Source: Candidatus Marinacidobacterales bacterium (GTDB taxonomy: Bacteria > Acidobacteriota > Vicinamibacteria > Marinacidobacterales > DATDRI01). Taken from it: a DNA stretch of 64,000 nucleotides. The notes beneath the pieces are model-generated. The model had not been told where the DNA came from, did not search any database, and was given only the letters and a program-made list of their open reading frames with translations. Of the stretch, positions 10,263 through 52,204 are shown piece by piece (within the stretch, counting starts at the first letter, position 1; each line of letters begins with the position of its first letter). The stretch is taken from positions 960,001-1,024,000 of the forward strand of contig OZ245365.1 of NCBI GenBank assembly GCA_965226495.1, in the 5' to 3' direction. Both the position numbers and the translations under genes were made by a program.

Positions 10263-12245
10263 ATGCTCGTATGGAAACGGATTAATTGTGTTCTCTTCCT
10301 GGTCCTTGCCGGGGCGACCTGTGCTTGCACTGCCAGTGGGCCTAGTGAGCCACGCAAGATCACGATCGAAGATGCCCTCGAGATCAAGGACACCGGGGCA
10401 CCCGCGTGGTTGCCTGGGGGCCGGGAGGTGTCTTTCTCCTGGAGCCGGGGTGGGGAAAGCGAGCTATGGGCGGCGGACGCGGCTGCGACCGAGAGAGGGC
10501 AACCAGGAGCCCCGACGCTCAGGCAGCTGGCGCCCCTTTCGGACCGGTCGGTTCCCACGATTTCCCCGGATGGGAAGTATCTCGCGTACGTCTCGAAGGA
10601 TCACATTTGGAAGATCCCGTTGGAAGGCGGCCGGCCGGTTCGCTTGACCACCGAGGAGGGCAGTTACCCTTCGAGGGGGATGGTCCTCAACTGGTCGCCG
10701 GACGGAAAACACATCGCGTTCTTCGTCCAGCGCGAAGACTCGCTGGCGCGACCGGGCTCACCGGCGGGGTTCGGCTACCAGACCGACGTCGGCATCGTAG
10801 CCGCTTCCGGAGGCGAGCCGAAGATGATCGCCAGCACCACCAGGGACGAGGACTCACCCATTTGGACGCCCGCGTCGGATCGCCTGGTTTTCTTAAGACG
10901 GTTCGAGGACTGGAAGGGCTACGAGATGTGGATCACCAACCTCGACGGCTCGGAGCAGCGACGGTTGGTGACCGAAACCTACGAGCGAGGTGTAGAGGAG
11001 TTCCGATTCGACGGCAACCACCACTTCTCCCCGGATGGGAAGCGCATCGTGTATCTCTCCAGTCGAACCGGTTACAACCACCTTTGGGTCGCACCCGTCG
11101 CGGGAGGCGACCCGGTTGAGATCACCACCGGACCGTACGTCGACTACCACCCCCGGTGGTCCCCCACCGAGGATCGAATCGTCTTCATCGGGAGTCGTGC
11201 CGGCGACGTCGAGGAAAGACACGTATGGGTGGTGGACGCTGATGGCGGCGAGCCGGTGCGGGTCTCGCCTGATGGTTTCTGCACGAATCCAGCATGGTCG
11301 CCGGACGGCAGCCGCGTGGCATACCGACGATCGAGCACTACCGAACCGCCGGAGATCGTCGTCCAGGAGGCTACGCCGGGGTCTCCCGTTTTTCGCCTGA
11401 CGGAGTCAAGGCCGGATCCCGTGGTCACCGCGGGCTTCGTCGAGCCCGAGGCCGTCCGCTATCCCAGCCGCGACGGTACCGAGGTTCCGGCCATTCTCCT
11501 GCGGCCCCGCGGGAACGAGCGGTCGGGCCCCGGGCTGTTGTTTTTCCACGGCAAGGGCGGCATCAACCTCAAGGGCTGGGGAGGCCTGCGCTACTACGCC
11601 TTCCACCAGTACCTGGTGCAGCAGGGTTACAGCGTGCTCTTCATCAACTGGCGCGGCACTCATATCGGGTACGGTGCCGACTTCGAGCGCGCCAACTACC
11701 GGGACTACGCTGGCGGCGAGCTCGACGACGTGGTGGCGGGCGCCGAGTTCCTCGACAAAGAAGTGGGAGTGGATCCAACGAGGATTGCCTGTTGGGGAAG
11801 CAGCTACGGCGGGTACATGACGATGTTGGCTATCACCAAGGCCCCTGAGGTCTGTAGCGCCGGGATCTCTCGCGTGGGCGTGTCCGACTGGGAGCTGATG
11901 CTCGAGCAGCCCGACAGGAAGCTCTACAACGTCCGCGTCCTCGCCAAGCTCGGCGACCCGGCCGAGAACCCGGAGATTTGGCAACGCGCCGCACCGATCC
12001 GCTACGCGGCCGAAGCCCGCTCCCCGCTCCTCATCCTTCAGGGACAGGACGATCCCGGCGTGGTGCCGGAGCAGGGGGAGACTCTCTACGACGCCATGAT
12101 CAAAGAGGGGAAGACGGTGGAGTACGTTGCCTACATCGGGGAGGGGCACGGCTTCACCCACACCGGGTCGCTCCGCGACCAATACAACCGGATGGTTGCC
12201 TTCCTCACCGAGCACAATGGTGTGCACACGGATTCGACGGACTGA
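10263..12245 (+). CDS. S9 family (prolyl oligopeptidase/DPP) peptidase with PD40 beta-propeller
   Basis: Repeated WSPDG; GSSYGG, QGQDD and GEGHGF catalytic motifs; GGAGG RBS before ATG 10263. Confidence 0.9.
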   Translation: MLVWKRINCVLFLVLAGATCACTASGPSEPRKITIEDALEIKDTGAPAWLPGGREVSFSWSRGGESELWAADAAATERGQPGAPTLRQLAPLSDRSVPTISPDGKYLAYVSKDHIWKIPLEGGRPVRLTTEEGSYPSRGMVLNWSPDGKHIAFFVQREDSLARPGSPAGFGYQTDVGIVAASGGEPKMIASTTRDEDSPIWTPASDRLVFLRRFEDWKGYEMWITNLDGSEQRRLVTETYERGVEEFRFDGNHHFSPDGKRIVYLSSRTGYNHLWVAPVAGGDPVEITTGPYVDYHPRWSPTEDRIVFIGSRAGDVEERHVWVVDADGGEPVRVSPDGFCTNPAWSPDGSRVAYRRSSTTEPPEIVVQEATPGSPVFRLTESRPDPVVTAGFVEPEAVRYPSRDGTEVPAILLRPRGNERSGPGLLFFHGKGGINLKGWGGLRYYAFHQYLVQQGYSVLFINWRGTHIGYGADFERANYRDYAGGELDDVVAGAEFLDKEVGVDPTRIACWGSSYGGYMTMLAITKAPEVCSAGISRVGVSDWELMLEQPDRKLYNVRVLAKLGDPAENPEIWQRAAPIRYAAEARSPLLILQGQDDPGVVPEQGETLYDAMIKEGKTVEYVAYIGEGHGFTHTGSLRDQYNRMVAFLTEHNGVHTDSTD

Positions 12246-12347
12246 CGCTTCCACTCGCCGGGCGGGCTTGAAATTTCCTATCCTTAATGCAAGCTTGGCG
12301 GGCCGTAGCCGGCACGAAAAGTCACGCTGGGAAGTAAGCGGCGAAGG

Positions 12348-12734
12348 TCAAGCAAGCTCGAGGTCAGTCTTCGGGAAATCGTCACCCGCAGCCAGCAAGG
12401 GTCGGCCCGCCAGGTGTGCGGTCGCGTAGGACATGCAATCGCCGAAGTTCAAGGCTGCCGGATGACGGCCCTTCCCAAACCGGAGCCAGGCTTCAACGGC
12501 GGTTCCATAGTGCGCCTCGCCAAAGGGAACGGTTGCGATGGAGGCTTCTATGAGGAAGCGCGAGAGGAGACTGCGGGCATCCTGACGCAACCGGGCAGAC
12601 AAGACAATGGCGGTCTCGGTCAAGGTCGGCACTCCGATACCAGCGTTAGGCTCCCGGAGCAGTTTCTCCAACAGGCTTTCAAAGCCGGGTTCTTTCAGGG
12701 CGATCGCAACAACTGCCGAGCTGTCGAGAATCAC
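12348..12734 (-). CDS. vapC: VapC PIN-domain toxin
   Basis: MILDSSAVVAI...RHPAALNFGDCMSYA...GDDF. Confidence 0.93.
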   Translation of the reverse strand: MILDSSAVVAIALKEPGFESLLEKLLREPNAGIGVPTLTETAIVLSARLRQDARSLLSRFLIEASIATVPFGEAHYGTAVEAWLRFGKGRHPAALNFGDCMSYATAHLAGRPLLAAGDDFPKTDLELA

Positions 12735-13003
12735 ACTCCCGCTTTGCCATACCCTAGTATGGCCTCCTCTTCTGCACGACTCAGTCTCCGGCCGATCTCC
12801 TCCGCGGGTACCGTCGGCCAGACCTCCTGCTCGAGAAACCGTCGGAGTCTGGCCTCACGGTTCGCGCTTGATACCAGGAAAGTGAGTCTTTCCCGGCGCT
12901 CCTCCAGCGCCTTCCGGACGGCTTCAGTCTTGCTCTCCCCGGCCAACCGGGCGACCTCCCGAACGAGCCGTTCAACCTCAGGATTCTTTATGTTCAATGG
13001 CAT
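12731..13003 (-). CDS. vapB: VapB antitoxin (Rv0623-like)
   Basis: MPLNIKNPEVERL...GESKTEAVRKAL...EEEAILGYG; overlaps the vapC start by 4 bp. Confidence 0.9.
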   Translation of the reverse strand: MPLNIKNPEVERLVREVARLAGESKTEAVRKALEERRERLTFLVSSANREARLRRFLEQEVWPTVPAEEIGRRLSRAEEEAILGYGKAGV

Positions 13004-13093: not shown

Positions 13094-13128
13094 TTGACAG
13101 CAAAGTGGGTATCAGTTAAAATGATACC
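13094..13128 (+). promoter_or_regulatory. Sigma70 promoter (probably leaderless) with inverted-repeat operator
   Basis: TTGACA (13094-13099), 17 nt, TAAAAT (13117-13122), ATG at 13129; GGTATCA-N7-TGATACC at 13108-13128. Confidence 0.8.
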
Positions 13129-13332
13129 ATGAAACCGAAGGAAACTCTCGCAAGGTTCGCCGCTTTTCTGGGGATCGATCTTCAGGACTGCGTCGCACTC
13201 GCCCCGAATCACGAGGAGCTGAAGGTCGTCGTCGCACCATGGATAGAGGCGCCGGATGCGAACGTCGATTGGCCCGCTCCTGTCCGTGCCACACTCGAAG
13301 ACCTGCAACGGAGGCTGGGCCGTGGCGTATAA
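13129..13332 (+). pseudogene. Short ORF, probably an internally deleted nucleotidyltransferase-like (DUF6036-like) gene
   Basis: N-terminal MKPKETLARFAAFL joins directly to GIDLQDCVALAP...DANVDWP...LGRGV, which by recollection resemble the two ends of longer proteins. Unverified. Confidence 0.45.
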
Positions 13333-13993
13333 ACGTGTCGACGTGTCCTCCGAGCCTCTCCGCGGCGAAGAGCTCACAGCTGCGATGGTGGGCGTTGGCT
13401 TGAACTTCGCTGCTTCCGCGACCGCTGAGCCGAACATGGAAGACACGCTTCTTGATGCCTCGGTGGAAGGGATGGAGCGAGATGATCTACGGGTGCTTGC
13501 CGTTCTCGTCACGTGGCTGGGAATCCACCATCCGTGGATCAACGCGGATCGTCTCATCCGGGCGGTTCGCACTCAGACAAGCTCGCGAGTACGGTGCTTC
13601 TGGGCTGCGGTAGCGCGTTGGCTGCACCGCGATCGGCGCCTTGTGCGTCTCGTCGAGCTGTACGATGGCCCGCGCATCGATCTTCTCAGGACAGGGACGG
13701 GTTTTCAGATGCGCCGCAGAGGCGAGGACGAGCGATTCGTTGGTGGACCGCTACGAGCCCCTGCAGGAGTCCTTCGTGATCGCGTAAGCGATGTGCTCTC
13801 GGCGGCCGAGCTCGCGAAGCACCATCGGACGTATCGTTACCGCGTGCTGATGGGTCCGAGCTACCGGGCAGACATGTGGGCCGCACTCGAACTAGACCCG
13901 ACGCTGTCACCCTCTGAGCTTGCGCGTCAAACCTATGGATCGTTCGCTACTGCGTGGCAGGTCAAACGCGACTGGGAGCTGCTGGCAGCCTGA
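13322..13993 (+). CDS. Hypothetical protein with C-terminal HTH-like segment
   Basis: GTG at 13322 overlaps the upstream ORF; C-terminal LSPSELARQTYGSFATAWQVK looks like an HTH. Confidence 0.65.
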   Translation: MAYKRVDVSSEPLRGEELTAAMVGVGLNFAASATAEPNMEDTLLDASVEGMERDDLRVLAVLVTWLGIHHPWINADRLIRAVRTQTSSRVRCFWAAVARWLHRDRRLVRLVELYDGPRIDLLRTGTGFQMRRRGEDERFVGGPLRAPAGVLRDRVSDVLSAAELAKHHRTYRYRVLMGPSYRADMWAALELDPTLSPSELARQTYGSFATAWQVKRDWELLAA

Positions 13994-15272: not shown

Positions 15273-16465
15273 ATGAACCGCCGGGGTTTTCTGTTCAATG
15301 CGGCGAGTGCAGTGCTCGCGCTAGCAGGCAAGGCGCCGGCGCGCGCCTCGCCGCCTCGCCATTCTGGTGCCGTTACCCTCTTTCTATGTGGCGACGTCAT
15401 GACCGGCAGGGGCATCGATCAGGCGCTCCCCCACCCGAGCGACTCGCGTATTCACGAGCGCACCCTTAAATCGGCCCTCGGCTATGTGCAACTCGCCGAA
15501 GCCGCCAACGGCCCCATCGCTCGACCGGTCGACTACGACTACACATGGGGAGCGGCGCTCGAAGAGTTGGACCGGGACACTCGACGCCAGGATCATCAAT
15601 CTCGAGACAACCGTGACGAAAAGTGACGATTGGTTGGCCAAGGGGATCAACTATCGGATGCATCCTGCAAACGTTTCTTGCCTGACGGCGGCAGGAATAG
15701 ACTGCTGCGTGCTCGGCAACAATCACATTCTAGATTGGGGCCACTCCAGCCTTTCCGAGACATTGGCGACTCTGCGGAAGGCCGGCTTGAAAACCGCGGG
15801 AGCGGGACGAGATATCGAAGAAGCGGAGGCGCCGGCGATTTTGGAGCTCGACGGCGAGAGACGAGTCCTGGTCTTGTCTTTTGGATCGGTCACTGCCGGG
15901 ATACCGCGGCAGTGGGCCGCCACCAGGGGCACTCCCGGTGTCAATCTGTTCCCAAACCTCTCCGGCGGAACCATCCGGCACATTGCTAGGAAGGTCGAGG
16001 CTCTGAAGCAGCCGGGAGACGTCGTGGTGGCTTCGATTCATTGGGGTAGTAATTGGGGCTTCCACATTCCGCGTGAGCAGCGGACGTTCGCGCACAAGCT
16101 CCATCGAAGAGGCATACGTGGACGTGGTGCATGGCCACTCGTCGCACCATGCCAAGGGAATCGAGGTCTACAAAGAAAAGCCAATCCTCTACGGATGCGG
16201 TGATTTCATCAATGACTATGAAGGGATCCACGGGCATGAAGAGTATCGAAGCGATCTGTGTCTGATGTACTTCGTCCGGATGGACCCGTCGACGGGCACG
16301 CTTTCCGGTTTGGAGATGACGCCTCTCCAGATCCGGCGCTTCCGCCTGAATCACGCATCGAAAGAGGACGCGAGATGGCTACGAGACACGCTGGACCGAG
16401 AATCTCGAAAGCTCGACACCCGCGTGGAATTGCGGGCGGACACCCTGTCCCTCCAATGGCACTGA
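15273..16465 (+). pseudogene. CapA/PGA_cap family metallophosphoesterase, Tat-exported, split by two frameshifts
   Basis: MNRRGFL Tat signal; GDVMTGRG, INLET, GNNHILDWG, IHWGSNWG, HGHSSHH and YGCGDF lie in three frames (shifts near 15575 and 16100). Confidence 0.8.
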
Positions 16466-16503: not shown

Positions 16504-16659
16504 GAGGGACCCGCTGCGGGTGGTCGTGCCCTTTCCCCATTACCTCGAATGTGCTATTTTCCGGACGTACCGAGAGCCGAAGCGCTCTCGCGAACATGAA
16601 CTCAGTGGTTCTTGCTCACGCGGCCACGGTCCAACTTCCTATGATTTGATTTTCCTATG
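16504..16659 (+). repeat. Dispersed leader repeat, copy 1
   Basis: Similar over ~150 bp to 18594-18746; the core also matches 40353-40425 on the minus strand. Confidence 0.9.
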
Positions 16660-18593: not shown

Positions 18594-18746
18594 GAGGGAC
18601 CCGCTGCGGGTGGTCGCGCCTTTCCCGCATTGCGTCGGATGTGCTATTTTCCGGGCGTGACGACAGCCCGAACCGGGTCTCGCCAACATGAACTCAGTGG
18701 TTTTTGCTCACGGGGCCACGGTCAAATTTCCTAGGATTTTCCCATG
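18594..18746 (+). repeat. Dispersed leader repeat, copy 2
   Basis: GAGGGACCCGCTGCGGGTGGTCG...AACATGAACTCAGTGG...GCTCACG.GGCCACGGTC...TTCCTA.GATTT, ending at the kinase ATG. Confidence 0.9.
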
Positions 18747-39009: not shown

Positions 39010-39018
39010 GACATTTCC

Positions 39019-40466: not shown

Positions 40467-42176
40467 TCAGCTCGGACGGTCCGAACGCATCTCCGCGCGG
40501 AGCGCCTCGGTCTCGTCCTCCAGTATCACGAGGCGCTCAGGATCGATCGCTACCGAGTAATCGGTGCGCGCCCGCTCCAGCGAGACGTAGCCGTTTCGCA
40601 CGTCCTCGAGAACCCTAGCGGGATCCCGTTCCCACGGCGGTCCGTAGCCCCCACCACCCGGCAGCTCGAGCGTTATCTCCAACCCGGCGGGGAGTGGGGT
40701 TCGGGTCTTGGCGCGGAGCGATACGTTGGGATCACTAGCCCGCAGGTTGCCGGCGGCACCCGGCCTCCCGCCGCTCAGACCGGGGGCGGGACACTGGATG
40801 CGCTCGTAGAGCCCCGAGAAGATAAAGGGTTGGTCCGAGCGCACCGCGAACTCCATCACCTGGCCGAGCCCGCCTCGGTACGTGCCGGCTCCGCCCGAAT
40901 CCGCGCGGAGCTCTCGTCGCTTCAACAGGATGGGCGAGAGCGTTTCGATGACCTCCGCCGGCACCCCGGCGATGCCGCTGGGGAACGCCGTGGCCGAGAG
41001 CCCGTCCTTCGTCGAGAGAGCGCCGGTGCCCCCGGAGGAGAACCACACGTACGTGAAACGGTTTCCGGTCTTGGGATCGTGGCCGAAGATCTGCGTATCC
41101 CACAACCCGTCGGCTCCGGGAGCCATCACCCGATCCGGCAAGGCTTCCGCCAAGGCGCCGAAGATCGCGGCGGGAAGAAAATGACCCACCAGGTGGCGTC
41201 CACCGACCGCGGCGGGGAACTGAGCGTTCAAGATGGAGTCCTTGGGCGCGGTGACCGTCACCGGGCGGAAGCTACCCTCGTTGTTGGGGACGTCCGGGGA
41301 GATGGCGCACTTGAGGCCGTAGGTGGTGTAGGCGGTGGTGTAGTTCATGGCCACGTTAATGCCTTGGTCGACCGGGCCGGACGAACCGGCATAGTCCACC
41401 GTGATACTGTCGCCGCTCACCATCACCGAGACCTTGATCCGCACCGGATCATCGAAACCGTCGATCCAAAGCTCGAAGGGGTAAGCGTCGTCCGGGATTG
41501 CCGCGATACGTTCGCGCATCCCGGCCTCGGACCGGTCCAGGATCAGATCCGCCAGGGCCTCGATGTCGCCGAGGTCGAACTCGTCGAGGAACGAGAGGAG
41601 CTCCCGCCCCCCCACTTCATTTCCCACCACCTGGGAGTGGAGGTCTCCAAGGACCTCCACGGGGGCGCGGACATTCGATCGCAGGAGATCGAAGAAGGGG
41701 GTGACCGGTCGCCCCTCGTCATAGAGCTTCATCACCGGAATGAGAAGACCTTCCTCATAGACCTCCCGGGAGTCGGCCGAGAGACCGCGGCCGCCGATGT
41801 CCAGGGCATGACAGGTGTTGGCGAAGAACGCCACCACCCGCCCATCTCGGAAGATGGGGGTGGCGACGGTGATATCGTTGAGCTGCGACGCCGTCTTCCA
41901 TGGGTCGTTGGTCACCAGGACGTCACCAGGCCGCAGCGCGTCGGGCGGGAAGGCCGCGAGGAAGTGGCGCATGCCGGTGGCCATGGAGTTGATGTGACCG
42001 GGCGTCCCGGTCACCGCCTGGGCGATCATGCGGCCTCGCCGATCGAAGACGCCGGCGGACAGGTCGCCCGCCTCGCGAACGATAGAAGTGAAAGAGGTTC
42101 GGATGAGCGCCGCGGCTTGCTCGTTCACCACGCTGATCATGCGGTTCCAGAGCACTTCAAGGGTGAGCTGATCCAT
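40467..42176 (-). CDS. hyuB: Hydantoinase B / oxoprolinase family protein
   Basis: LIRTSFTSIVREAGDLS, TNDPW, DSGGAGTYRGGLG, PGGGGYG. Confidence 0.9.
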   Translation of the reverse strand: MDQLTLEVLWNRMISVVNEQAAALIRTSFTSIVREAGDLSAGVFDRRGRMIAQAVTGTPGHINSMATGMRHFLAAFPPDALRPGDVLVTNDPWKTASQLNDITVATPIFRDGRVVAFFANTCHALDIGGRGLSADSREVYEEGLLIPVMKLYDEGRPVTPFFDLLRSNVRAPVEVLGDLHSQVVGNEVGGRELLSFLDEFDLGDIEALADLILDRSEAGMRERIAAIPDDAYPFELWIDGFDDPVRIKVSVMVSGDSITVDYAGSSGPVDQGINVAMNYTTAYTTYGLKCAISPDVPNNEGSFRPVTVTAPKDSILNAQFPAAVGGRHLVGHFLPAAIFGALAEALPDRVMAPGADGLWDTQIFGHDPKTGNRFTYVWFSSGGTGALSTKDGLSATAFPSGIAGVPAEVIETLSPILLKRRELRADSGGAGTYRGGLGQVMEFAVRSDQPFIFSGLYERIQCPAPGLSGGRPGAAGNLRASDPNVSLRAKTRTPLPAGLEITLELPGGGGYGPPWERDPARVLEDVRNGYVSLERARTDYSVAIDPERLVILEDETEALRAEMRSDRPS

Positions 42177-42202
42177 CGCGCCTCCTTAGACCCCCGGGCC
42201 TA

Positions 42203-44296: not shown

Positions 44297-44331
44297 CGAT
44301 CCAGCTCCGGTGCCAGGCTCACGAGGTTTTC

Positions 44332-45705
44332 TCAGCGAGGCTCGTAGAGATCGGTTGTGGGATAGAAGGCGTACCAGCCAAACCAATACGCATTGTGACC
44401 CGGCAGTCGGGGAAGCTGAAGGCTGCCGGACTCATCGAGCAGAGAGTCCTCGGTCACCTTCCAGGCAGAGCCCGAGCCCTCCTCGATCAGCTCGCCATCC
44501 TTACTGCCTCGTTTGAACCGACGGCCGTCTGATTCGTAGGCTCGCACCGCCCCCGAGCTCTTCTCGACCATCAGCACCAACTCCTTACCACCCAGGCGAT
44601 CGTGGACGATGCGCTTCTTCTTCAGCGTTTTCAGCGGGTACGCCTTGGGTTTGCCATTCACGATAAGGGCAAAGACCCAGTCCTTCTTTTTCAAGCGGTC
44701 GCTTTGAAGCCAAACTGGAAACATGGTGTCGTCAGAACGGAAGTACTCCTCATAGGGACTCTTGCGGTAATCCAGTTCGTATCCCGTATCTGGATCGAGC
44801 ACTTCGGTATCGGGATGAAGCCTCACCCATTCCTTCCATGTCGTCACCACAGCTGGCAGCATCTTCAGCTTGATCCCCGAGTTGGCTAGCTTCCCCGAGA
44901 TCGGTTCACCGGTTAGATTGCTCCAAAGGCTTTGTGTCTGGTGATCGTACATGAGCTTGTTCGACCGGTAGAGCAGCCCCGACGAGCCAAAGGTAAATTG
45001 TTGCGTCTCGACCCGACCGTCATAGAGAATTCCCGAGCCACAGAGCGTGCAATATGAAAGGCTTATCGGGGTCTCTCCTACTACGTCATTCGTCATTTCG
45101 TGCCAATCGAGGATCCGGTGAGGGTAGGCTCTCGCAACGCCGTCTATGTAGACCCCAAAGACCAGGTCTTTGGGGCGGAGGTACGCTGCATCCGCGGCGC
45201 GGACAACGGATGGGTTCTGAAGAGCCGGAATGCCGTCCTTCTTGACTCCACCCCACTCAATTTCTTCGGGACGGATGCGGAAGGTAAAGCCTGGATCCAG
45301 GAATCGACGGAAAGCGGGATCGTAAAGGCCGAAGACCGATCTCTTAAAGGCGAGATAGCCCGGCTTGGGTTTGATCTCTTCGTGACCGCCGATCCATTTC
45401 GTCCAGCCCAGCTTCGGGTTGTCCTGGACTTGGTCGCTAGCAATGTGCTCCATGATGGCGACGACTTCCTCCGCCCGGCCGCCGTCCTCAATCACATAGT
45501 AGAAGGCGAGGACATCATTGAGTGCGGCGAGAAGGGTCTTGTCTCCCGAAGCGACAAGCCGCTCGCCCGCCTTCCTGCGAACAGCGCCGTCCTTTGAAAG
45601 TAGATCCACGACGAGTTGGTAACTCCCCTCGACGGGAAAGGACTCGCCCATTCCCACGGCTAGAGAGAGCACCGCCGCCAGAAGGAGGTGAACGGTTTTC
45701 AACAT
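44332..45705 (-). CDS. DUF3179 domain protein, secreted
   Basis: WGGVKKDGIPAL, ILDWHEMTND, YCTLCGS, SGLLYRSNKLMYD, YWFGWYAFYP. Confidence 0.85.
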   Translation of the reverse strand: MLKTVHLLLAAVLSLAVGMGESFPVEGSYQLVVDLLSKDGAVRRKAGERLVASGDKTLLAALNDVLAFYYVIEDGGRAEEVVAIMEHIASDQVQDNPKLGWTKWIGGHEEIKPKPGYLAFKRSVFGLYDPAFRRFLDPGFTFRIRPEEIEWGGVKKDGIPALQNPSVVRAADAAYLRPKDLVFGVYIDGVARAYPHRILDWHEMTNDVVGETPISLSYCTLCGSGILYDGRVETQQFTFGSSGLLYRSNKLMYDHQTQSLWSNLTGEPISGKLANSGIKLKMLPAVVTTWKEWVRLHPDTEVLDPDTGYELDYRKSPYEEYFRSDDTMFPVWLQSDRLKKKDWVFALIVNGKPKAYPLKTLKKKRIVHDRLGGKELVLMVEKSSGAVRAYESDGRRFKRGSKDGELIEEGSGSAWKVTEDSLLDESGSLQLPRLPGHNAYWFGWYAFYPTTDLYEPR

Positions 45706-45805
45706 CTGATCTCCTGGCCAGAACAAAACCGTCCTCGCTCAGGAGACGCGAGGAGCTAGAAGCCGGTCGCAACCACAAACGAAGCGCCGGATCACTTTAG
45801 TAAAC

Positions 45806-45844
45806 AAAAAAAGGGGAAGAGGAGAGTCAATCTCCTCTTCCCCT
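45806..45844 (-). terminator. Rho-independent terminator of the TonB receptor gene
   Basis: Perfect 14-bp stem AGGGGAAGAGGAGA/TCTCCTCTTCCCCT, 5-nt loop, U-tract on the minus strand. Confidence 0.9.
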
Positions 45845-45859
45845 GTGGTCAACGACTCG

Positions 45860-48829
45860 CTACCAGAGGAAACGAAACGCTATCTCGGCCTGCCTCGCAT
45901 CCTGGGCGCTTAGGATCTGTCCGAACGATGGGGAAAGAGAATTTTGTACGTTCGGGGGGGTGAGGAAGCGCGCACCTAGATTGACGTTGTTGAGGACGTT
46001 GAACACCTGAAACATGAGCTCGACGGCCGCGCCGCCACCCACCTGAATCTGCTTGCTCACGCGCAAATCCAAGTTGAGGTAGCGGGTGCTATCGATCTGG
46101 TCTTCAGAGAGCGCGGCCAATCCGTTCTGGGCCCTCCAATCGTTCACCAAGGACATGTCGAGATCGCGGTTCCCCTGGTTGCGGGTGGTGCCCGGCACGT
46201 AGTCGCCATCGGCGCCGCTGGCGAAGCCGTCCCCATTGAGATCCCTACCTGCTTTCGCACTGAAGGGCATCGACGTGCGGAAGGTCCAGATTCCGGAAAG
46301 CCCGATCTCGTACGGGAGAATCACGAAGCCGGAGGTCACGAGCATGTGCCGACGGTCAATGGTGAAGTTCCCGTAATCATCCTCGCGCTGCAACTGATTC
46401 ACGAAACGCCGACCCGGGTTGTTATCGTTCCCCTTCTGCCAGGTGTAGCTCACGAGGTACTGGTAGTTGTCCTTGAGGCGCCTGTCGAGCTTTACGTATA
46501 GGCCCCTGTAATCGGTCTTGGAGATGGACTGCCTTTCGTCGATTCGGCCGAACGTGGGATCGGGCCGCAGGCCGGTGATTGGGTCCCTTGGGTTTAGGTC
46601 GACCCGCTTTCGGTCGTCCCGGGTACGGGTATAAAGGAAGTCCGCGTTGAACGAAAATCCTGGTACGACCTCTCTCTCGAAACCGAAGTTCACCTGTTGC
46701 GACTGGGGATTGTGAAAGTCTTCGGCCAAGAAGCCGACGTTCTGTACTCCTGAGGTTATAAATTCCAGCTGGTCCCGGCCCCCGTAGGGATCGGGAAAGG
46801 GTGGATTGCTGATCCGGAGACTTAATCGGCCAAAGTTTCGATACTCGAAGAAGTTCGCCAAGGTGCGGATGTTGTCGTAGTAGATGCCGTATCCGCCACG
46901 GATCACCGTCTTGGCGTCACCCGCAGGGTCATAGGCGAAGCCAAAACGAGGGCCGATGTTGTTCCCATCTCCCCTGTCCGATGGGTTTGGCTGGCCGGGA
47001 ATCGGAAGGACGATGCTTTTCAGCGCGGCTACGACATCGGGTGCGACGGCGGGGATTTGGCCGTCGAGGATGGGATAGTCGTCGATGTTCAGGTTCTCGT
47101 TGAAGGAGCCATACTGCCGATCGTAACGGATACCCAGGTTGAAGGTCAATTTTTCGTTCGGCGACCAGTCATCCTGGAAATAAATGGCCAAGTGCGATGA
47201 GTCGACCCGCGTATAGGATGGCGGCAAGCTGTTGGTAAACACAATCGGAAAGGTGCTGGGATCGTTCGGATCGTAGGGATCGTTGGTGGCGAAGGTATAG
47301 TTTCCTCCGTCAAAATTCTGTGCCGAGCTGTCCTCGAAGGGTATGTTGCTGTAGTCGACACCCACCTTGAAATTGTGGTCCCCTCCCCAGTCGCTCTTGA
47401 AGTAGGTAAAGTCGTCGCGGAACTCCCGGCGATACTCGGGTCCAAGCTCGTCGAAGTTACCGCCGTCGACGACATTGGGACGGATGGTGACGCGCTGGAT
47501 GTTGGCTAGCCGTTCCGGAGGAAACTCGTTCACCTTGGTAAAGACCGGAGTTCCGGAGGGAGCGATCTGGTACTCGGAGTAGGCCCACTGGAACTTGAAC
47601 TCGTTGAGGGCCGACGCATTCAAGATCGAAGTCAGTCCGACGACCAGCGCCTTCCGAGGGACTTGGTTGTCGAAACCTGCATTTTCCCTTCGAAAGCCGC
47701 CACAGCGGAAGCAGCCCGTCAATTCATCCTGCTGTGCGTAGCGGGCGAAGAGGTTATGCGTGTCCGAGATGGTTTGATCCCATCGAACCGAGAAGAGGTT
47801 CCGATAGAACTCTCTGGGAAAGGCTCCGTCAAACTCCGGGAACACTCCACCCGTGTTAACCGTAAAGGCCGCCTCCTGGTCGGTCCTTTCGAAAGCCACG
47901 TAAATATGACTCTTGTCCTTTACGATAGCTCCTCCCGCGCTAGCGCCAAACTGGTGACGGTAGAAGTCGGGCTCCGCGATACCGAGCTCTTGGTTGAAGT
48001 GGTTATTTTGATTCGACGCCTGGTTCCGGTAGTACCAGAATGCGTTGCCCTGGAGATTGTTCGTCCCCGACTTGGTCACCACCGTGATGACCCCGGCAGT
48101 GGCCAGTCCGTACTCGGCTTTGGCCTGAGTGTTGATGACCTTGAACTCCTCCACGGCATCTTGGGGCAGGTCCTGTCGAGGCTCTCCCTGCTCCGCCCAA
48201 GTATTCACCATCCCATCGGCGACAAAGGCAGTCGAATAAAACGTGGCTCCTGAGGAAATATTAACGTTGTTGTAGTACGGACGGGCACCATCCTGGCTAG
48301 TGCCGGGCATGAGCAGGGCCAGGTTCAGGTACTGGCGCGAGTTCAGCGGCAAGTTGTCGATTTGGTCCTGGGCGACCACTCCCGAGATCTCGGCCTTGGT
48401 GATCTCCACCAAGGGCGACTCTCCGGTGACGGTAACACTCTCGGCGACGGTCGCCAGCTCCGCTTGGAAGCCGATGGGCGCCTCCTGCCCAATCTGCAAA
48501 ATGATGCCGGTCATCGTCATCGTCTTGAACCCATCCAGCACCATGACCAATGAGTACGTGCCCGGTTGCAGCGCAGGAATGCGGTAGCGGCCCGCTGGGC
48601 CGGTGACGGCAGAGCGGCTGAATCCGGTTTCTTCGTTCGTGGCCGTGATGGTCGCGCCAGGGACAACCCCACCAGAGGGGTCCTGGACCGTTCCGAACAC
48701 GGCCGCAGCGGTGCTCTGAGCCTCGGCGGTAGCGGGTGCGAGATGAAAGATGAGTAGTGCAGCCATACATAGCACCAGCCAGCCTCGAGCATTGGGTAAT
48801 TTTGGGAAAAGCCCTGATCTGTAAATCAT
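45860..48829 (-). CDS. Oar-like TonB-dependent receptor with carboxypeptidase-regulatory-like N-domain
   Basis: GTVQDPSGGVVPGAT, LPLNSRQYLNLALLMPG, VTKSGTN, GPRFGFAYD, C-terminal RFLW. Confidence 0.9.
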   Translation of the reverse strand: MIYRSGLFPKLPNARGWLVLCMAALLIFHLAPATAEAQSTAAAVFGTVQDPSGGVVPGATITATNEETGFSRSAVTGPAGRYRIPALQPGTYSLVMVLDGFKTMTMTGIILQIGQEAPIGFQAELATVAESVTVTGESPLVEITKAEISGVVAQDQIDNLPLNSRQYLNLALLMPGTSQDGARPYYNNVNISSGATFYSTAFVADGMVNTWAEQGEPRQDLPQDAVEEFKVINTQAKAEYGLATAGVITVVTKSGTNNLQGNAFWYYRNQASNQNNHFNQELGIAEPDFYRHQFGASAGGAIVKDKSHIYVAFERTDQEAAFTVNTGGVFPEFDGAFPREFYRNLFSVRWDQTISDTHNLFARYAQQDELTGCFRCGGFRRENAGFDNQVPRKALVVGLTSILNASALNEFKFQWAYSEYQIAPSGTPVFTKVNEFPPERLANIQRVTIRPNVVDGGNFDELGPEYRREFRDDFTYFKSDWGGDHNFKVGVDYSNIPFEDSSAQNFDGGNYTFATNDPYDPNDPSTFPIVFTNSLPPSYTRVDSSHLAIYFQDDWSPNEKLTFNLGIRYDRQYGSFNENLNIDDYPILDGQIPAVAPDVVAALKSIVLPIPGQPNPSDRGDGNNIGPRFGFAYDPAGDAKTVIRGGYGIYYDNIRTLANFFEYRNFGRLSLRISNPPFPDPYGGRDQLEFITSGVQNVGFLAEDFHNPQSQQVNFGFEREVVPGFSFNADFLYTRTRDDRKRVDLNPRDPITGLRPDPTFGRIDERQSISKTDYRGLYVKLDRRLKDNYQYLVSYTWQKGNDNNPGRRFVNQLQREDDYGNFTIDRRHMLVTSGFVILPYEIGLSGIWTFRTSMPFSAKAGRDLNGDGFASGADGDYVPGTTRNQGNRDLDMSLVNDWRAQNGLAALSEDQIDSTRYLNLDLRVSKQIQVGGGAAVELMFQVFNVLNNVNLGARFLTPPNVQNSLSPSFGQILSAQDARQAEIAFRFLW

Positions 48830-48916
48830 TGCTCATACCTCCCCGGCCTCTTTGGCCGCTGTTTCTTGGCTCCTTGACGAGCCAATGATTGGTATATAAT
48901 CCATTAGAGTTGGAAA

Positions 48917-48933
48917 TGCAAGCAAAGCGCCAA
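48917..48933 (-). promoter_or_regulatory. Putative sigma54 (-24/-12) promoter
   Basis: Minus strand TTGGCGC-TTTGC-TTGCA matches TGGCRC-N5-TTGCW, about 90 bp upstream of the TonB receptor ATG. Confidence 0.65.
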
Positions 48934-49192
48934 CTTTTCAAAAGAAAGGGGAGAATCTTAACTGCTTCATTTTCAAGTACGTGGAGAAGTTGGTGTCTCG
49001 AGGAAAGCCCCTGGCGAGCCTGAAAAATCCATGAATCTGTATGTAGATCCAAGTCCTCGGAGATCGACCCCGATTCAGACTATGAAGTCAAGAGAACCCC
49101 AGAGCGTCTTGGACCGAATGTACCCGTCCTTTCTGTTCTTGACATCCGCAGCTTCTTTCTAGTAGAAGGCCTTACGGAGTTCCTGTAAGACG

Positions 49193-50434
49193 ATGCCATC
49201 CACTTCCTCTTCGACTCGCTGGTACGGGGAAATCACATCCGTTCAACGCCGGAGCCTTCTCGCCGCATCGCTTGGCTGGATGCTCGACAGCATGGACGTG
49301 CAGCTCTATGCGTTGATTCTGCTCGAAGTGATGCGGGACTTGGAGATGGACAAGGGCACCGGGGGTTTCCTGGCGTCGCTTACTTTGCTCTCCTCGGCTG
49401 CGGGCGGCGTTCTCTTCGGGATTCTGGCCGATCGAATCGGGCGCACTCGGGCGCTCATGCTCAGCATTCTCATCTACTCCGTGTTTACGGCAGCATGCGG
49501 TTTCTCCCAGACGGTCTTTCAACTCGCGATGTTTCGCGTGCTACTCGGTTTCGGGATGGGAGGGGAGTGGGCCTCTGGCGCCGCTCTCGTCGCGGAGACG
49601 TGGCCAGCTAAACACCGAGGCAAGGCCATGGGCATCATGCAGAGCTCTTGGGCTGTTGGTTATGCGTCGGCGGCAGGCGTTACCGCTTTGATCCTTCCAA
49701 CTCTCGGCTGGCGCGCCGTCTTCTTCGTCGGGATTCTCCCCGCCTTGCTGACGCTGTGGATCCGGAGAAGGGTGGCCGAACCGGAGATCTGGGTTCGCTC
49801 GCGCGAACAATCGAACGCCGAGCCCATCAGTATCTGGACCATCTTTTCTCCGCGCTACCTCCGGAACACTCTTTTGATCACGTTCATGAATGCCGGAACC
49901 ATGTTCGCCTGGTGGGGGCTCTTCACATGGGTTCCTACTTATCTGAGACTTCCCCCCGAGCAAGGTGGCGCCGGCCTCACCGTTGTCGGCTCGTCCGTCT
50001 GGATCATTGTGCTGACCGTTGGTCAGTGGTTTGGCTATATATCCTTCGGCTTCATCGCCGACTCACTGGGTCGCAAGAAGGCCTACCTTCTATACCTTCT
50101 AGTAGCCGCAGCGCTGGTACCTGTCTACGGCAGCACTCGCGACCCTACTGCGCTTTTGGTGCTGGGGCCCTTCTTGGCGTTCTTCGGCACCGGCTACTTC
50201 TCCGGTTTTGGCGTGATCAGCGCCGAGCTCTTTCCGACCCGCATCCGCGCATCGGCGCAGGGGTTAACCTATAACATTGGAAGGGTGGCAAGCGCTGCCG
50301 CTCCTTTTGTGGTGGGCACACTGGCCGAGAAGTATGGGCTCGGGATGGCGTTCAATGTGACTGCGGCGGCCTTTCTCTTCTCCGCCGCACTCGCCGCCTT
50401 CCTTCCCGAAACGCGGGGTAAGGAACTCGAGTAG
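49193..50434 (+). CDS. MFS transporter (NanT/aromatic acid-like)
   Basis: GWMLDSMD, GILADRIGR, GMGGEW, ELFPTRIRA, LPETRG. Confidence 0.88.
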   Translation: MPSTSSSTRWYGEITSVQRRSLLAASLGWMLDSMDVQLYALILLEVMRDLEMDKGTGGFLASLTLLSSAAGGVLFGILADRIGRTRALMLSILIYSVFTAACGFSQTVFQLAMFRVLLGFGMGGEWASGAALVAETWPAKHRGKAMGIMQSSWAVGYASAAGVTALILPTLGWRAVFFVGILPALLTLWIRRRVAEPEIWVRSREQSNAEPISIWTIFSPRYLRNTLLITFMNAGTMFAWWGLFTWVPTYLRLPPEQGGAGLTVVGSSVWIIVLTVGQWFGYISFGFIADSLGRKKAYLLYLLVAAALVPVYGSTRDPTALLVLGPFLAFFGTGYFSGFGVISAELFPTRIRASAQGLTYNIGRVASAAAPFVVGTLAEKYGLGMAFNVTAAAFLFSAALAAFLPETRGKELE

Positions 50435-50510
50435 TCCGCTCTGCGCCGCGCGGCTTTCAGCTCGCGGTGCCTAGAGTGTTTGGCTAGCTGCGGCCGGATC
50501 ATATAGGTCG

Positions 50511-51797
50511 CTACGAGAGCGCCTCCAGGTTGCTAGCGGCGATCTCTCTCATAGAAGCGGAGAGGCTGTCGTTCTCGCTACCCCTTCGCCAAAACGTTGC
50601 GGCGAGGGAGCTCGCTTGACTCCAGACGTCCCAAGTTTCGGCGGTAGGCGTTGGGCGTACGAACTCCCGGTTCGGTAGTTGCCCGTCGCCCGTAGGTGCA
50701 TAGAGCGTAGGCAATTGGTCGAAGGCAGGTGCGAGCGTGTAGCGCCTCGGCTCCACCGTCATGTTTTCGCCTTCACCCTTGTGTGCCGGAAACAGCGCGA
50801 TGTTGTAGTGATGGCGGTCTTCGTTCGCGATCAGTCGTGCGAAGGCTTCATAAAGCTGTAGCCGCCGCGCATCCTCGGTCGAAAGCCCCCGAACCTGGGC
50901 GAGTCGAGTGGCGATGCGAGCCCACGTGTCTGTCAGATCGTCGTGCGCCGCGGCAAGGGTCATTATGGCGCACCTGCCGCGTTCGCCGATTCGGTCGAAA
51001 CGCTCGACTTCCAAGAACCGATAGGTGCCCGTTTCTATGAGCCGCGCGTTCGCAGCCGCTACACCACCACCCCGCAGAACTTCCAACGCGAGTGCCTCGA
51101 GGCTCAACAGGTCCAGCCAACGCTGCGCGAGTGCGGACTCCCCTTGGGCGGTGAACTTGACCAGGTAATGCCGACCTTCCACATAGGCACCGAACTTCGG
51201 TCTTTCGCCGCCGGCGGAGGAGCCCGGCGGGTCGCCTGCCGTAGCGGCCTCAGCGAGTTCGCGGTAATCATCCCGGGTCACCGGCGAAGGCGGGTTGGAA
51301 GACCATCGTTCCATGGATTCGTCGCCGAGGAGAAGGTTTCCGGGAAGGTTTTCACCACGCCGAGCCAAGGCCACCACGGTATGATCATCCGACCAGTCGC
51401 TGATGCGTGGGGGAACGCGCAGGTCCGGATGCTGGTTCGAAAAGGCGCGACCCATGAACCCGGAGGGCCGCATATCACCAACTTCTGGCGGGAGCCCAAA
51501 AAAGATCACTCCAGATGGCAACCACGCTGTTTCGTGGCGCGCCAAAACGAAAAGCCGGCCCACCGGATGCGGTCTGCCGGTGTCGTCGATTCGGAAAAGC
51601 GGGACGTCAGATCCCGCGAGCCCAGAGATTTCACGCCGTAGCCCATAGCGAGTGGCTCGTCCGCGGCCGATGCGGACGATCTTGTCGCCCTCGGCGCGGA
51701 CACGGCTCATCAACGTTTGCGGCGAAATTCCAAGGGCGTCGGTGAGGCGTCCGGCCGGGACGACTCCTCGCTGAAGCTGATCGGTGAGGGCGCTCAT
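50511..51797 (-). CDS. yjjJ: YjjJ-like HipA-family kinase with N-terminal HTH
   Basis: N-terminal HTH (LGISPQTL..RATRY), GSSAGGERPKF, EVERFDR, IANEDRHHYN, LAPAFDQLP; no HipB partner nearby. Confidence 0.8.
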   Translation of the reverse strand: MSALTDQLQRGVVPAGRLTDALGISPQTLMSRVRAEGDKIVRIGRGRATRYGLRREISGLAGSDVPLFRIDDTGRPHPVGRLFVLARHETAWLPSGVIFFGLPPEVGDMRPSGFMGRAFSNQHPDLRVPPRISDWSDDHTVVALARRGENLPGNLLLGDESMERWSSNPPSPVTRDDYRELAEAATAGDPPGSSAGGERPKFGAYVEGRHYLVKFTAQGESALAQRWLDLLSLEALALEVLRGGGVAAANARLIETGTYRFLEVERFDRIGERGRCAIMTLAAAHDDLTDTWARIATRLAQVRGLSTEDARRLQLYEAFARLIANEDRHHYNIALFPAHKGEGENMTVEPRRYTLAPAFDQLPTLYAPTGDGQLPNREFVRPTPTAETWDVWSQASSLAATFWRRGSENDSLSASMREIAASNLEALS

Positions 51798-51915
51798 TTT
51801 TGGAATGATTTTAGAATGATTAAATATGATTATAACTATATATAAATAAATAGTTAAATGGCTTAATTATTTTTTAAACATCATATTTACAGAATGATTA
51901 TAGAACGATTATTGT
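51798..51915 (-). promoter_or_regulatory. Very AT-rich promoter region with GAATGATT direct repeats
   Basis: GAATGATT at 51803, 51814 and 51892, GAACGATT at 51903 (two pairs, 11-bp period), plus ATGATT at 51826. Confidence 0.65.
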
Positions 51916-51931
51916 CACAAAGCAAGCGCCC

Positions 51932-52204
51932 CTGGAGCTTTTTGGGGCGTTCTTTGGCACCGGCTACTTGTCCGGCTTTGGCGTGATCAGCGCCGAGCTC
52001 TTTCCGACCCGCATCCGGGCAACGGCGCAGGGGTTAACCTATAACATTGGAAGGGTGGCAAGCGCTGCCGCTCCTTTTGTGGTGGGCACACTGGCCGAGA
52101 CGTATGGGCTCGGGATGGCGTTCAATGTGACCGCGGCGGCCTTTCTCTTCTCCGCCGCACTCGCCGCCTTCCTTCCCGAAACGCGGGGTAAGGAACTCGA
52201 GTAA
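51932..52204 (+). pseudogene. Duplicated 3' fragment of the MFS gene
   Basis: About 273 bp, near-identical to 50162-50434 (offset 1770) and degenerate at its 5' edge. Confidence 0.92.

Follow-up and report, generated by a model that had tools for sequence, protein, structure and literature searches.

Repeated gene ends at three loci of the window

The DNA analysed (the window) is a 64-kb stretch of the acidobacterial genome under study (G000), which is a single 6.34-Mb contig. Three loci inside it, named (a), (b) and (c), show a complete gene upstream and a fragment repeating its 3' end downstream on the gene's own strand, with other genes in between; this common polarity was reported in the initial annotation and holds at all three. 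The three repeat pairs themselves are real by their E values, a shuffle control and comparison with G002, a congener of G000 that was used, together with the relative G001, for empty-site comparison. Pfam searches confirmed Peptidase_S9, PIN/VapB-like, PGA_cap (split over two frames), TPR, VWA and two Pkinase-TPR genes in the stretch from the S9 gene to the kinases, and an HTH_32/rve_3 insertion sequence (IS), SoxG/A/D/B, Hydantoinase_B/A, MFS_1 and HipA_C at the other two loci. Other tandem paralogs also occur in the window, for example LVIVD genes (28154-32437). An Rfam scan of the whole window at the gathering threshold gave 0 matches, including none for the dispersed 'leader' repeat mentioned below.

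The parent at locus (a) is a gene of the S9 prolyl-oligopeptidase family (9990-12245, forward strand; Pfam Peptidase_S9, PD40 and DPPIV_N), 92% identical to its G002 ortholog over the full length, 3' end included. In self-comparison and BLAST, its 3' segment (12143-12216, forward) recurs as an orphan relic (21751-21824, forward) over 74 nt with 82% identity (61/74) and an exact core of 26 nt; local BLAST aligned 57 nt at 87.7% (E 5.8e-12). The copy is in frame across the catalytic-His motif, which reads GHGFTHTGSLRDQY in the S9 gene and GHRFRYTGSLRDQY in the relic. Between the two lie a vapC (PIN) gene with a vapB-like antitoxin gene (12348-13003, reverse; a G000-specific indel without counterpart in G002), around which direct repeats were searched for and none found, and a Ser/Thr kinase-TPR gene (kinase 1; 18744-21707, forward). 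Past the relic comes a second such gene (kinase 2; 22074-25067, forward), preceded by a REP-like dispersed repeat (22003-22062, unstranded) with more than 100 genomic copies in a genome search. The 3' 1.96 kb of kinase 1 (19752-21713) is 95% identical to kinase 2 (23115-25073), against just 76% in the 5' part, and the relic begins 38 nt past the end of this duplication. G002 carries one kinase here, the ortholog of kinase 2, and lacks the tail and most of the insert.

This arrangement invites an explanation without any import of DNA, in which a stretch was duplicated locally, in tandem or as a segment. Deletion, divergence and gene conversion would have come later, and orphan tails would be the left edges of second copies otherwise lost. 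The 38-nt distance fits a duplicated unit with the S9 3' end and the end of the kinase as its limits, G002 shows the collapsed single-copy state, and further tandem paralogs such as the LVIVD genes are at hand. Against it, the relic is closer to a distant S9 paralog (G000 950991-952975; 66/74) than to the adjacent S9 gene (61/74), with the G002 S9 gene in between (63/74). The adjacent S9 3' end matches G002 at 68/74, in line with the whole gene, and is the native allele. Because the relic is nearer to the paralog, the adjacent gene end is native and a tandem-kinase joint is present, locus (a) is a weak case. It probably falls outside the class of displaced tails, and its relic is more likely left from the S9 paralog or from a segmental duplication at the joint of the two kinases.

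At locus (b), the displaced tail of hyuB (T; 33542-33578, reverse) comprises the stop codon and the last 12 codons, and its first 12 nt are identical to G002. An IS481-like element (33579-34943, forward; HTH_32/rve_3 transposase at 33672-34745; ends TGTG...CACA) begins one base past T (33578/33579), with no visible target-site duplication around it. Just 78 nt from its far end lies the soxGADB block for heterotetrameric sarcosine oxidase (35022-40352, reverse), followed by a copy of the dispersed 'leader' repeat upstream of soxB (40347-40421, reverse; more copies at 16504-16647 and 18594-18739) and by intact hyuB (Hydantoinase_B; 40467-42176, reverse), whose last 37 nt (40467-40503) form repeat copy H. 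T and H, which both start at the stop codon of hyuB, agree at 32/37 positions (self-search over 80 kb, E 7e-4), and the 18-mer common to them occurs exactly twice in the window and in 0/100 shuffles. In G002 the site is empty: the beta-propeller gene is joined directly to hyuB with a single tail copy, and the G002 alignments of the two flanks overlap by precisely the repeat. This single copy where the flanks meet settles the repeat as real. A length of 37 nt is about the lower limit for RecA.

Over the first 12 nt it is T that resembles G002; H has 4 differences within positions 9-13, and the distal 18 nt are the same in both copies. Such an allele pattern is expected for a crossover inside the repeat and, judged on a span of just 13 nt, would be compatible with a foreign allele in H. 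By sliding identity, hyuB is about 92% identical to G002 except in its last 120 nt, where the value is 84%. Among 80 soxB loci, which all belong to distant taxa, no hyuB-soxB neighbourhood was found. The search for a donor gave the same result: hyuA, hyuB or the beta-propeller gene stood beside soxB in 0/80 loci, all at most 80% identical and from other phyla.

The sox block is 94.7% identical to that of G002, where it occupies a different site about 40 kb away; G000 is empty at that site. An IS without target duplication implies that its two flanks were formerly not adjacent. With the sox block about 40 kb off in G002 and such an IS abutting T, a local rearrangement assisted by the IS is suggested at least as strongly as the capture of DNA from a relative that had been proposed. 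One specific version, for this locus alone, is that the IS481-like element moved the sox block through a circle of IS plus adjacent DNA or by IS-IS recombination, the 37-nt repeat being the remnant of a longer tail or a hyuB piece carried on the circle. The IS end precisely at the T junction, the proximity of the sox block to the other end, its different site in G002 and the numerous related IS copies in G000 and its relatives speak for it. Only one IS copy is present at the locus, however; the hyuB-side junction lies at the stop codon, beside the 'leader' repeat and not at an IS end, and IS481-family events are known to leave short target duplications, not 37 nt. We give this version a slim chance.

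Locus (c) starts with an intact MFS transporter gene (49193-50434, forward; Pfam MFS_1), whose last 272 nt (50162-50433) constitute copy A0. A hipA-like (YjjJ-like) kinase toxin gene (50511-51797, reverse; Pfam HipA_C), single copy in the genome, is convergent with it, and the displaced MFS tail found by self-comparison (T0; 51932-52203, forward) contains an open 78-codon frame (51968-52204). The copies match over 272 nt at 95%, or over 258 nt at 97.3% (E 3e-128), in frame and ending with the stop codon. G002 has the same MFS, hipA-like gene and tail structure with the same left junction (hipA-like protein 85% identical in amino acids), so the event is old and precedes the G000/G002 split. The within-genome pairs are the closest (96.5% and 92.5%, versus 84.5-91.5% between genomes), and the 97% identity of the G000 copies reflects gene conversion, which erased any allele contrast between intact gene and tail that could tell the route of entry. 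No foreign MFS 3' end was seen, sliding identity giving a divergence from G002 no higher than in the rest of the gene. No empty site was found among the 30 relatives searched, and no donor with an MFS gene beside a hipA-like gene was found.

The hipA-like gene was also considered as a cassette always accompanied by flanking repeats, and this was rejected: both-side repeats occurred in just 7/68 loci of relatives by blastn, and at protein level in 5/67 loci versus 2/109 shifted controls. Just one of these loci (L084, a Sulfuricella MAG) clearly mirrors locus (c).

Chance similarity or an assembly artefact is an extremely improbable source of the repeats. Only the pair at (b) is short (37 nt, E 7e-4), and its shuffle control was clean; the E values at (a) and (c) are 6e-12 and 3e-128. 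Since the copies have diverged, they are not collapsed or duplicated reads, and independent evidence comes from G002, which is empty at the site of (b) and has the complete structure of (c). Parts of 48000-53000 are present in 20 public runs. Contigs from an independent run break where A0 and T0 are identical, which is what the presence of two copies predicts. Those of runs X1, X2, X3 and X15 over 33000-52999 contain no joint that skips an insert, and neither an excised circle nor an empty-site variant was seen, contigs being blind to rare forms.

Orphan gene ends across the genome

Orphan gene fragments were surveyed over G000 with the following filters: at most 3 genomic copies, a length of at least 35 nt and a spacing of 0.3-25 kb. 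In 18 pairs, from 17 genes, the orphan 3' fragment lay downstream of its parent, and in 1 it lay upstream; orphan 5' fragments were upstream in 7 and downstream in 3, and internal fragments were divided 12 and 12 between the two sides, all counts carrying the caveat of gene calls from a purpose-written simple caller (ORF and codon usage). An excess of 3' fragments is present between the two sides (17 genes downstream, 1 upstream). Against the mirror-image 5' class (17 versus 7 genes), the kind of comparison that the initial annotation had proposed, the contrast is weak and suggestive only.

Twelve of the 3'-downstream cases are clean, which shows that the architecture recurs. In 7/12 the repeat boundary is no more than 4 nt away from the last base of the stop codon; homology thus stops where the gene neighbourhoods diverge, rather than where a duplication happened to end. 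Seven of the 12 have repeats of 36-74 nt placed at the extreme gene 3' end, and five have repeats of 231-541 nt. The parents include the S9 peptidase, hydantoinase B, MFS, AMP-ligase, amidohydrolase and DUF2090 genes, and the repeated ends are homologous, not variable. The cargoes consist of the sox operon, single toxin-antitoxin (TA) genes and ordinary enzymes, without other element genes; TA genes were present in 4 of the 11 inserts scanned in whole or part.

Recombinases were searched for in six frames over the whole genome with the profiles PF00589 (Phage_integrase, 7 matches) and PF00239 (Resolvase, 5 matches); the integrase loci of G000 include 4 that are non-Xer. None of these matches falls in the window, as had been claimed, or within an insert of the clean cases (0/12). 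Only 2 shared 10-mers occurred in the sequence of the repeats (1902 nt in total), and this lack of a shared core counts against a single recombinase acting in trans, one of the mechanisms suggested earlier.

The same observations bear on decayed or trans-mobilised site-specific elements, which would have entered through a tyrosine or serine recombinase at a 3'-end att site, carrying a replacement 3' end, with the integrase later lost or located elsewhere (CIME-type). The 36-74-nt repeats have the typical size of att sites, G000 has a true integrase element with a perfect 50-nt repeat (1345632-1352510), and one of the survey cases, c2, has an integrase fragment 478 nt outside its insert. The two successive tails at another case, c3, resemble tandem accretion. 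The inserts free of recombinases and the repeats without a common core argue the other way, as do the five repeats of 231-541 nt, far above att identity segments, and cargoes with no further element genes. We regard this origin as unlikely.

Three survey cases outside the window, c1, c2 and c3, were compared with (b) and (c); in each of the five, part of an intact gene recurs after it as at least one orphan fragment. Case c3 (G000 5978521-5989470) has an empty site in G001 and two nested tails, and the tail after the cargo continues into the native flank. Parent and tail differ at 15 positions; 9 of these fall at parent positions 189-225, and 7 of the 9 (189-213) are spaced by multiples of 3. 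At the 9 sites both tails carry the G001 allele. Judged by these third-codon-position differences, the intact gene ends in a foreign-looking 3' patch. Pieces of the c3 cargo are 95-97% identical to one G001 contig, against 81-87% for the flanks, and the same contig also holds an 81% homolog of the c3 anchor gene. The 541-nt repeat of c1 extends 138 nt beyond the stop codon. Its copies differ at 12 evenly distributed positions, with the changes shared out between the two; by its sequence this case looks like a plain duplication followed by drift. Allele patterns of tail versus intact gene are mixed at c1 and c2.

The predictions made for relatives had different outcomes from case to case. Empty sites exist for (b) in G002 and for c3 in G001, and none was found for (c). 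A displaced tail carrying the native allele is seen at c3, whereas at (a) the intact S9 end is the native one and at (c) no foreign 3' end is present. At c3, the G001 contig with cargo pieces and an anchor-gene homolog may speak for capture from relatives; at (b), the local, IS-assisted alternative is at least as well indicated. The three window loci are not the product of one process and do not form the uniform class first described: the tail at (a) is nearer to a paralog and stands at a kinase joint, (b) is linked to an IS with the sox block about 40 kb off in G002, and (c) predates the split from G002.

Beyond locus (a), duplication without import accounts for the evenly divided differences at c1 and predicts both observed excess classes (3'-downstream and 5'-upstream). 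Yet a second copy of any cargo gene is absent for (b), (c), c1, c2 and c3, and the sox and hipA-like genes are single copy both locally and genome-wide. Cargo is missing from the empty sites of (b) and c3, which means that it was inserted there and not duplicated in place. The stop-codon boundaries (7/12) are likewise unexpected for random duplication ends. As a general account, this origin seems improbable to us.

Possible entry of DNA at gene 3' ends

Our tentative reading, which may well be correct, is that the repeats are footprints of DNA that host recombination, without an element-encoded integrase, joined to a resident gene at its 3' end. What we infer here is the recombination route. 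The 3' part of the gene would serve as the homology stretch for incoming DNA, which could enter in one of two ways: a circularised fragment bearing that stretch would integrate by a single crossover, or a linear fragment would be joined at one end by homologous recombination and at the other by illegitimate joining. By either route, the upstream copy would remain a complete gene, and the resident tail would be left as an orphan downstream of the new DNA. The orphan could later decay (as the G002 copy of (c) may have done), be trimmed or rearranged by an IS (as perhaps at (b)) or be kept similar by gene conversion (as proposed for (c) in G000). ComEC, DprA and Ku are encoded in the genome and are plausible candidate machinery.

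A wider proposal is that this lineage gains genes in general by such integrase-free displacement of tails on ordinary genes. Cargo between two 3'-end copies would loop out via RecA and travel as DNA, and a single crossover at the corresponding gene would then insert it again in a naive relative. Scar and means of spread would thus be one repeat, with TA genes as frequent riders. We consider this extension rather doubtful.

Small islets without mobile-element genes are common, and their entry into chromosomes is largely inferred. A scar that records entry would open the question to comparative genomics, and the scar considered here combines three features, namely the displaced tail, a repeat that ends by the stop codon and a foreign-allele patch in the intact gene. 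If general, it would extend the 'C-terminal displacement' logic of polymorphic toxin loci to ordinary metabolic and transport genes, and would explain how TA genes settle beside core genes and leave these intact. Should the tails be merely decayed att sites or duplication relics, they represent ordinary genome wear.

Comparison with known systems

Elements that target gene 3' ends and bring a replacement end include prophage e14 at icd, and ICESt1/ICESt3 and CIMEs at fda. The likeness lies in the order of gene, element and displaced 3' pseudo-end, and in the possibility of several tails through tandem accretion; the direct repeats and one-copy empty site typical of e14 at icd are present for (b) (in G002) and c3 (in G001). 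Elements of this type have or need a cognate integrase and a defined att core, whereas no recombinase lies in or beside the three window loci, no core is shared and repeats reach 541 nt.

Double crossovers in both flanks of an insert would leave no duplicated gene end. For TA 'islets' without mobile-element genes, a spread through homologous recombination in the core genes on either side has been proposed (PMC13617665). The small TA-only inserts without integrase in (c), c1 and c2 are similar; they differ by the duplicated end of the neighbouring gene, which the consulted passages of that paper do not describe for the islets.

In homology-facilitated illegitimate recombination during transformation, one homologous anchor and one illegitimate joint admit foreign DNA without a recombinase (de Vries and Wackernagel, 2002; Prudhomme et al., 2002; Meier and Wackernagel, 2003; as cited in PMC2884548 and PMC5361080). 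Both the foreign-allele patch next to the c3 cargo and the allele pattern of (b) agree with this process. In the laboratory, it mostly replaces or deletes recipient DNA, and duplication of the anchor end is not the outcome usually reported; here, the anchor's end is duplicated.

The closest parallels are polymorphic toxin loci. C-terminal displacement at rhs loci has been assigned to homologous recombination that proceeds through circular intermediates (Jackson et al., 2009, PMC2935791), and the growth of T6SS effector-immunity arrays to homology-facilitated illegitimate recombination (Kirchberger et al., 2017, PMC5361080). As described there, these loci also show an intact gene, new DNA and orphan 3' fragments, without an integrase and with arrays upon recurrence, of which the two tails at c3 are reminiscent. 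The idea is therefore not new in kind, the same logic being in print for rhs and T6SS loci; a brief literature search, confined to main texts, did not find the displaced-tail architecture in ordinary genes. In the rhs and T6SS reports, a non-homologous toxin domain arrives as the 3' tip, together with its immunity gene, and what is repeated is the conserved core. Such a variable tip and immunity gene after a conserved core are absent among the parents examined here: unlike at those loci, what recurs is an ordinary and homologous 3' end, belonging to a gene for an enzyme or transporter, and this gene has no relation to the cargo (sox operon, TA modules, enzymes).

Repeat pairs in the window and across the genome

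The source organism is an acidobacterium, and the window covers bases 960001-1024000 of one contig of 6.34 Mb (59% G+C). Relatives were searched in G001 and G002 (same genus) and in 28 further genomes. G002, whose sequence is collinear with the window (85-93% nucleotide identity), was the main comparator, and the window comparisons rest on this single close genome. Positions 48000-53000 are also represented in public sequencing runs X15-X20, which contain 95-98% of the words sampled from them.

The three repeat pairs of the initial annotation, each linking the 3' end of an intact gene (the parent) to a displaced orphan copy (the tail) beyond inserted DNA (the cargo), were all recovered by sequence comparison, with the same coordinates and strands. 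At locus (a) (S9 peptidase and kinases), the repeat spans 12143-12216 and 21751-21824 (74 nt, 82% identity, 26-nt exact core; E 6e-12). At locus (b) (hyuB and sox genes), the copies lie at 33542-33578 and 40467-40503 (37 nt, 32/37 identical; E 7e-4), and the 18-mer that they share occurred twice in the window and in 0/100 shuffles. At locus (c) (MFS and hipA-like genes), the repeat covers 50162-50433 and 51932-52203 (272 nt at 95%, with 258 nt at 97.3%; E 3e-128). Chance similarity or an assembly artefact can be regarded as excluded as the origin of these repeats. The gene names were borne out by Pfam and, as had been stated, no tyrosine or serine recombinase was found in the window, nor were tRNA genes or Rfam families.

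For the genome-wide survey, the genome of the source organism (G000) was compared with itself by local BLAST in 80-kb chunks, with genes called by a simple home-made ORF and codon-usage caller. Direct repeats pairing an orphan copy with a copy inside a gene (600 nt or longer) were sorted by position (at most three genomic copies, length of at least 35 nt, spacing of 0.3-25 kb). Orphan 3' ends lay downstream of the parent in 18 pairs (17 genes) and upstream in one; the mirror-image arrangement, an orphan 5' end upstream, was found seven times (downstream, three times). Internal fragments gave 12 and 12. At G000 1364001-1379000 (L112), a 0.7-kb duplication with 96.7% identity covers the 5' end of an FAD-binding gene and flanks 5.7 kb with IS91-type (Y2) and IS6-type transposases, which is the mirror-image architecture.

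Visual inspection removed six 3'-downstream rows: an IS, two rows from a repeat-rich region, a pair of tandem paralogs, the second tail of case c3 and one row belonging to a larger duplication. Twelve clean cases were left, three of them in the window. Toxin-antitoxin genes (vapBC, a hipA-like gene, abiEi/abiEii and a canonical hipA) were present in four of the 11 inserts scanned wholly or partly, and the remaining cargoes were enzymes, regulators, kinases and transposases. The repeat ends at most 4 nt from the end of the stop codon in 7/12 clean cases; no recombinase match was found inside any of the 12 inserts, and the 12 repeats have no shared motif. Elsewhere, G000 has four non-Xer integrase loci. 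Site-specific elements that have since decayed, or that are served in trans, are considered an unlikely source of the arrangement.

Empty sites at locus (b) and at c3

Empty sites in relatives, proposed as a check in the initial annotation, were found for locus (b) and for c3, a case outside the window. At (b), hyuB in G002 comes directly after the beta-propeller gene (the ortholog of 32434-33534). The left part of the alignment to G002 ends at window position 33571 and the right part begins at 40462, the overlap being one tail copy. Because the flanks meet in G002 in a single tail copy, the 6.9 kb between the two copies of the 37-nt repeat in G000 are an insert. This insert consists of an IS481-like element (33579-34943, ends TGTG...CACA), a 78-nt spacer, the sox block (35022-40352), one copy of the dispersed 'leader' repeat (40353-40421) and a last piece of 45 nt. 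In G002, the sox block (94.7% identical) occupies a site about 40 kb off, whose two flanks are separated by 143 nt in G000; each genome is therefore the other's empty site. None of 80 soxB loci, all from other taxa, had hyuB beside soxB.

The first base of the IS481-like element directly follows the tail and no target duplication was visible around it, so the element took part in making or trimming the junction. As an explanation, an IS-mediated event would be specific to (b) and is judged improbable. The displaced hyuB tail (T) equals the G002 sequence over its first 12 nt, hyuB's own 3' end (H) deviates at four of positions 9-13, and the two are identical over the distal 18 nt. This is the pattern that a crossover within the repeat would be expected to leave; the four clustered H changes complete a small hairpin and could instead be a single templated mutation.

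The 'leader' repeat (70-145 nt, 84-90% identity; window 16504-16647, 18594-18739 and, inverted, 40347-40421; also G000 916737-916851) immediately precedes the TPR gene, kinase 1 and soxB, and the G000/G002 sox homology stops exactly at its edge. Copies are present in G001 and G002, one of those in G002 preceding a single kinase, and no Rfam family matched. The repeat may be a shared promoter, a 5' UTR or a small mobile element. Two tandem LVIVD/Big-domain genes in the window (28154-32437) are 70-78% identical, and G002 carries a further paralog of this kind beside its sox block.

The best-resolved case was c3 (G000 5978521-5989470). In G001, the AMP-binding gene is joined directly to the downstream flank; in G002, this point is occupied by another insert, of 2.2 kb. 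In G000, the intact gene is followed by an AhpC gene, a 175-nt first tail, 9 kb more cargo and a 257-nt second tail that continues into the native flank. A single site distinguishes the parent from the second tail over 169 nt, followed by 14 sites over the final 80 nt; of these 14, seven (189-213) are spaced by multiples of three. The suggestion that the displaced tail is the native allele held at c3, where both tails have the G001 allele at nine of the differing sites. Parts of the cargo match a G001 contig at 95-97% identity, and the same contig holds an 81% homolog of the anchor gene, whereas the flanks reach only 81-87%. On these comparisons, c3 looks as entry by 3'-end recombination with a relative's replacement end should look. 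The pattern is absent from c1, a further case outside the window: the repeat of 541 nt extends 138 nt past the stop codon, with 12 differences that lie scattered and are divided between both copies.

A 615-nt element, one copy of which (G000 5989485-5990085; L109:14485-15085) lies 15 nt beyond the c3 displaced tail, was present in dozens of copies (97% identity) across two genera, in G001, G002 and G003. Its identity far exceeds that of the host genomes, which suggests a non-autonomous element that has been spreading very recently.

The explanation we favour, with slightly less than even confidence, is host recombination anchored in the 3' end of the gene. A circular fragment would enter by a single crossover in the 3' end or, in a second variant, a homologous joint on one side would be combined with an illegitimate joint on the other. 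ComEC, DprA and Ku are encoded in the genome, which shows only that the means exist.

An old junction at locus (c) and a probably different history for locus (a)

At (c), G002 has the same order as G000 (DUF3179, TonB-type receptor, MFS, hipA-like gene, MFS tail). The two tails begin at the same place, behind the same sequence from upstream of hipA, so the event is older than the divergence of the two species. In G002, the tail is truncated and its frame is broken by indels, as would be expected of a dead relic. Pairwise identities over 201 nt were computed for the intact MFS 3' ends (A0 in G000, A2 in G002) and the displaced tails (T0, T2): 96.5% for A0-T0, 92.5% for A2-T2, 91.5% for T0-A2, 88.6% for A0-A2, 86.5% for T0-T2 and 84.5% for A0-T2. 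As the closest pairs in both genomes are the within-genome copies and the junction is shared, gene conversion is indicated in both lineages. Where A0 and T0 differ, T0 mostly retains the G002 state, and identity to G002 is not lower over the complete MFS 3' end than over the remainder of the gene. Only one copy of the hipA-like gene exists in the genome; it is 85% identical to that of G002 in amino acids, a divergence about as in neighbouring genes.

In G001 (L113:7741-12075), an orphan MFS 3' fragment (corresponding to window 50045-50364 and split by IS21, IstA/IstB) directly follows a canonical 455-codon hipA. The tail of the same MFS gene, of which G001 has only this 3' fragment, is thus found beside yet another HipA-family gene, different from the first; the arrangement is curious rather than informative about the origin of (c). 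A fragment in G007, an unpublished genome of another genus, matches the first 70 hipA-like codons at 84% amino acid identity (L114:3718-3952); the conclusions do not draw on this genome. In G002 (L011:7147-10844), the last 240 codons of a large NAD-glutamate dehydrogenase gene are inverted right after codon 1191, codons 108-314 have no match, and the hipA-like gene beside it has a frame change near codon 304; these breaks are either real or assembly problems, G002 being listed with 9% contamination.

At (a), the G002 locus comprises S9, the 245-codon ORF, one 'leader' and only one kinase, the ortholog of kinase 2; vapBC, the methyltransferase-capA block, TPR, VWA, kinase 1 and the tail are missing. 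In G000, of two tandem Ser/Thr-kinase-TPR genes, the first contains the end of the supposed cargo. The tail starts 38 nt beyond the end of the match between the kinases' 95%-identical 3' halves, and between it and kinase 2 lies a repeat element present more than 100 times in the genome. The 74-nt tail matched an S9 paralog on the opposite strand (G000 950991-952975) at 66/74, the G002 S9 at 63/74 and the adjacent S9 at 61/74. The adjacent S9 3' end matches G002 at 68/74, in line with the gene as a whole, and so represents the native allele, contrary to the expectation that the tail would be native. A displaced end of the adjacent S9 gene is the less probable reading. Tandem duplication with decay, a rather doubtful account of the cases in general, is the first choice for (a), whose tail we read as a probable S9-family relic from segmental duplication or from the arrival of the kinase-1 block. 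The vapBC pair represents an indel of its own, around which no flanking repeats were found.

The REP-like element at window 22003-22062 (about 55 nt, more than 100 genome copies, some tandem) contaminates naive searches for orphan gene ends. The capA-like (PGA_cap) gene (15273-16203) is split over two overlapping frames and is probably a frameshifted pseudogene. The 245-codon ORF (13100-13993), preceded by the palindrome GGTATCAGTTAAAATGATACC, has no Pfam family, is 94% identical in G002 and has two copies at 85% in G014, from another family of the order; the region may be a small mobile module.

Comparison with known systems

The same architecture, with integrase-free explanations, is already in print in two places. 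C-terminal displacement at rhs loci has been attributed to homologous recombination through circular intermediates (PMC2935791), and homology-facilitated illegitimate recombination is described for T6SS effector-immunity arrays (PMC5361080). Small variable segments have also been proposed to arise by homology-assisted illegitimate recombination (PMC2884548), and toxin-antitoxin islets that lack mobile-element genes are reportedly common (PMC13617665). The ordinary-gene variant was not found in a limited full-text literature search, a thin basis for calling it unpublished. The logic would be that of the printed systems; in contrast to them, the anchors here are ordinary enzyme or transporter genes with homologous rather than variable ends, and the cargo is unrelated to the anchor gene.
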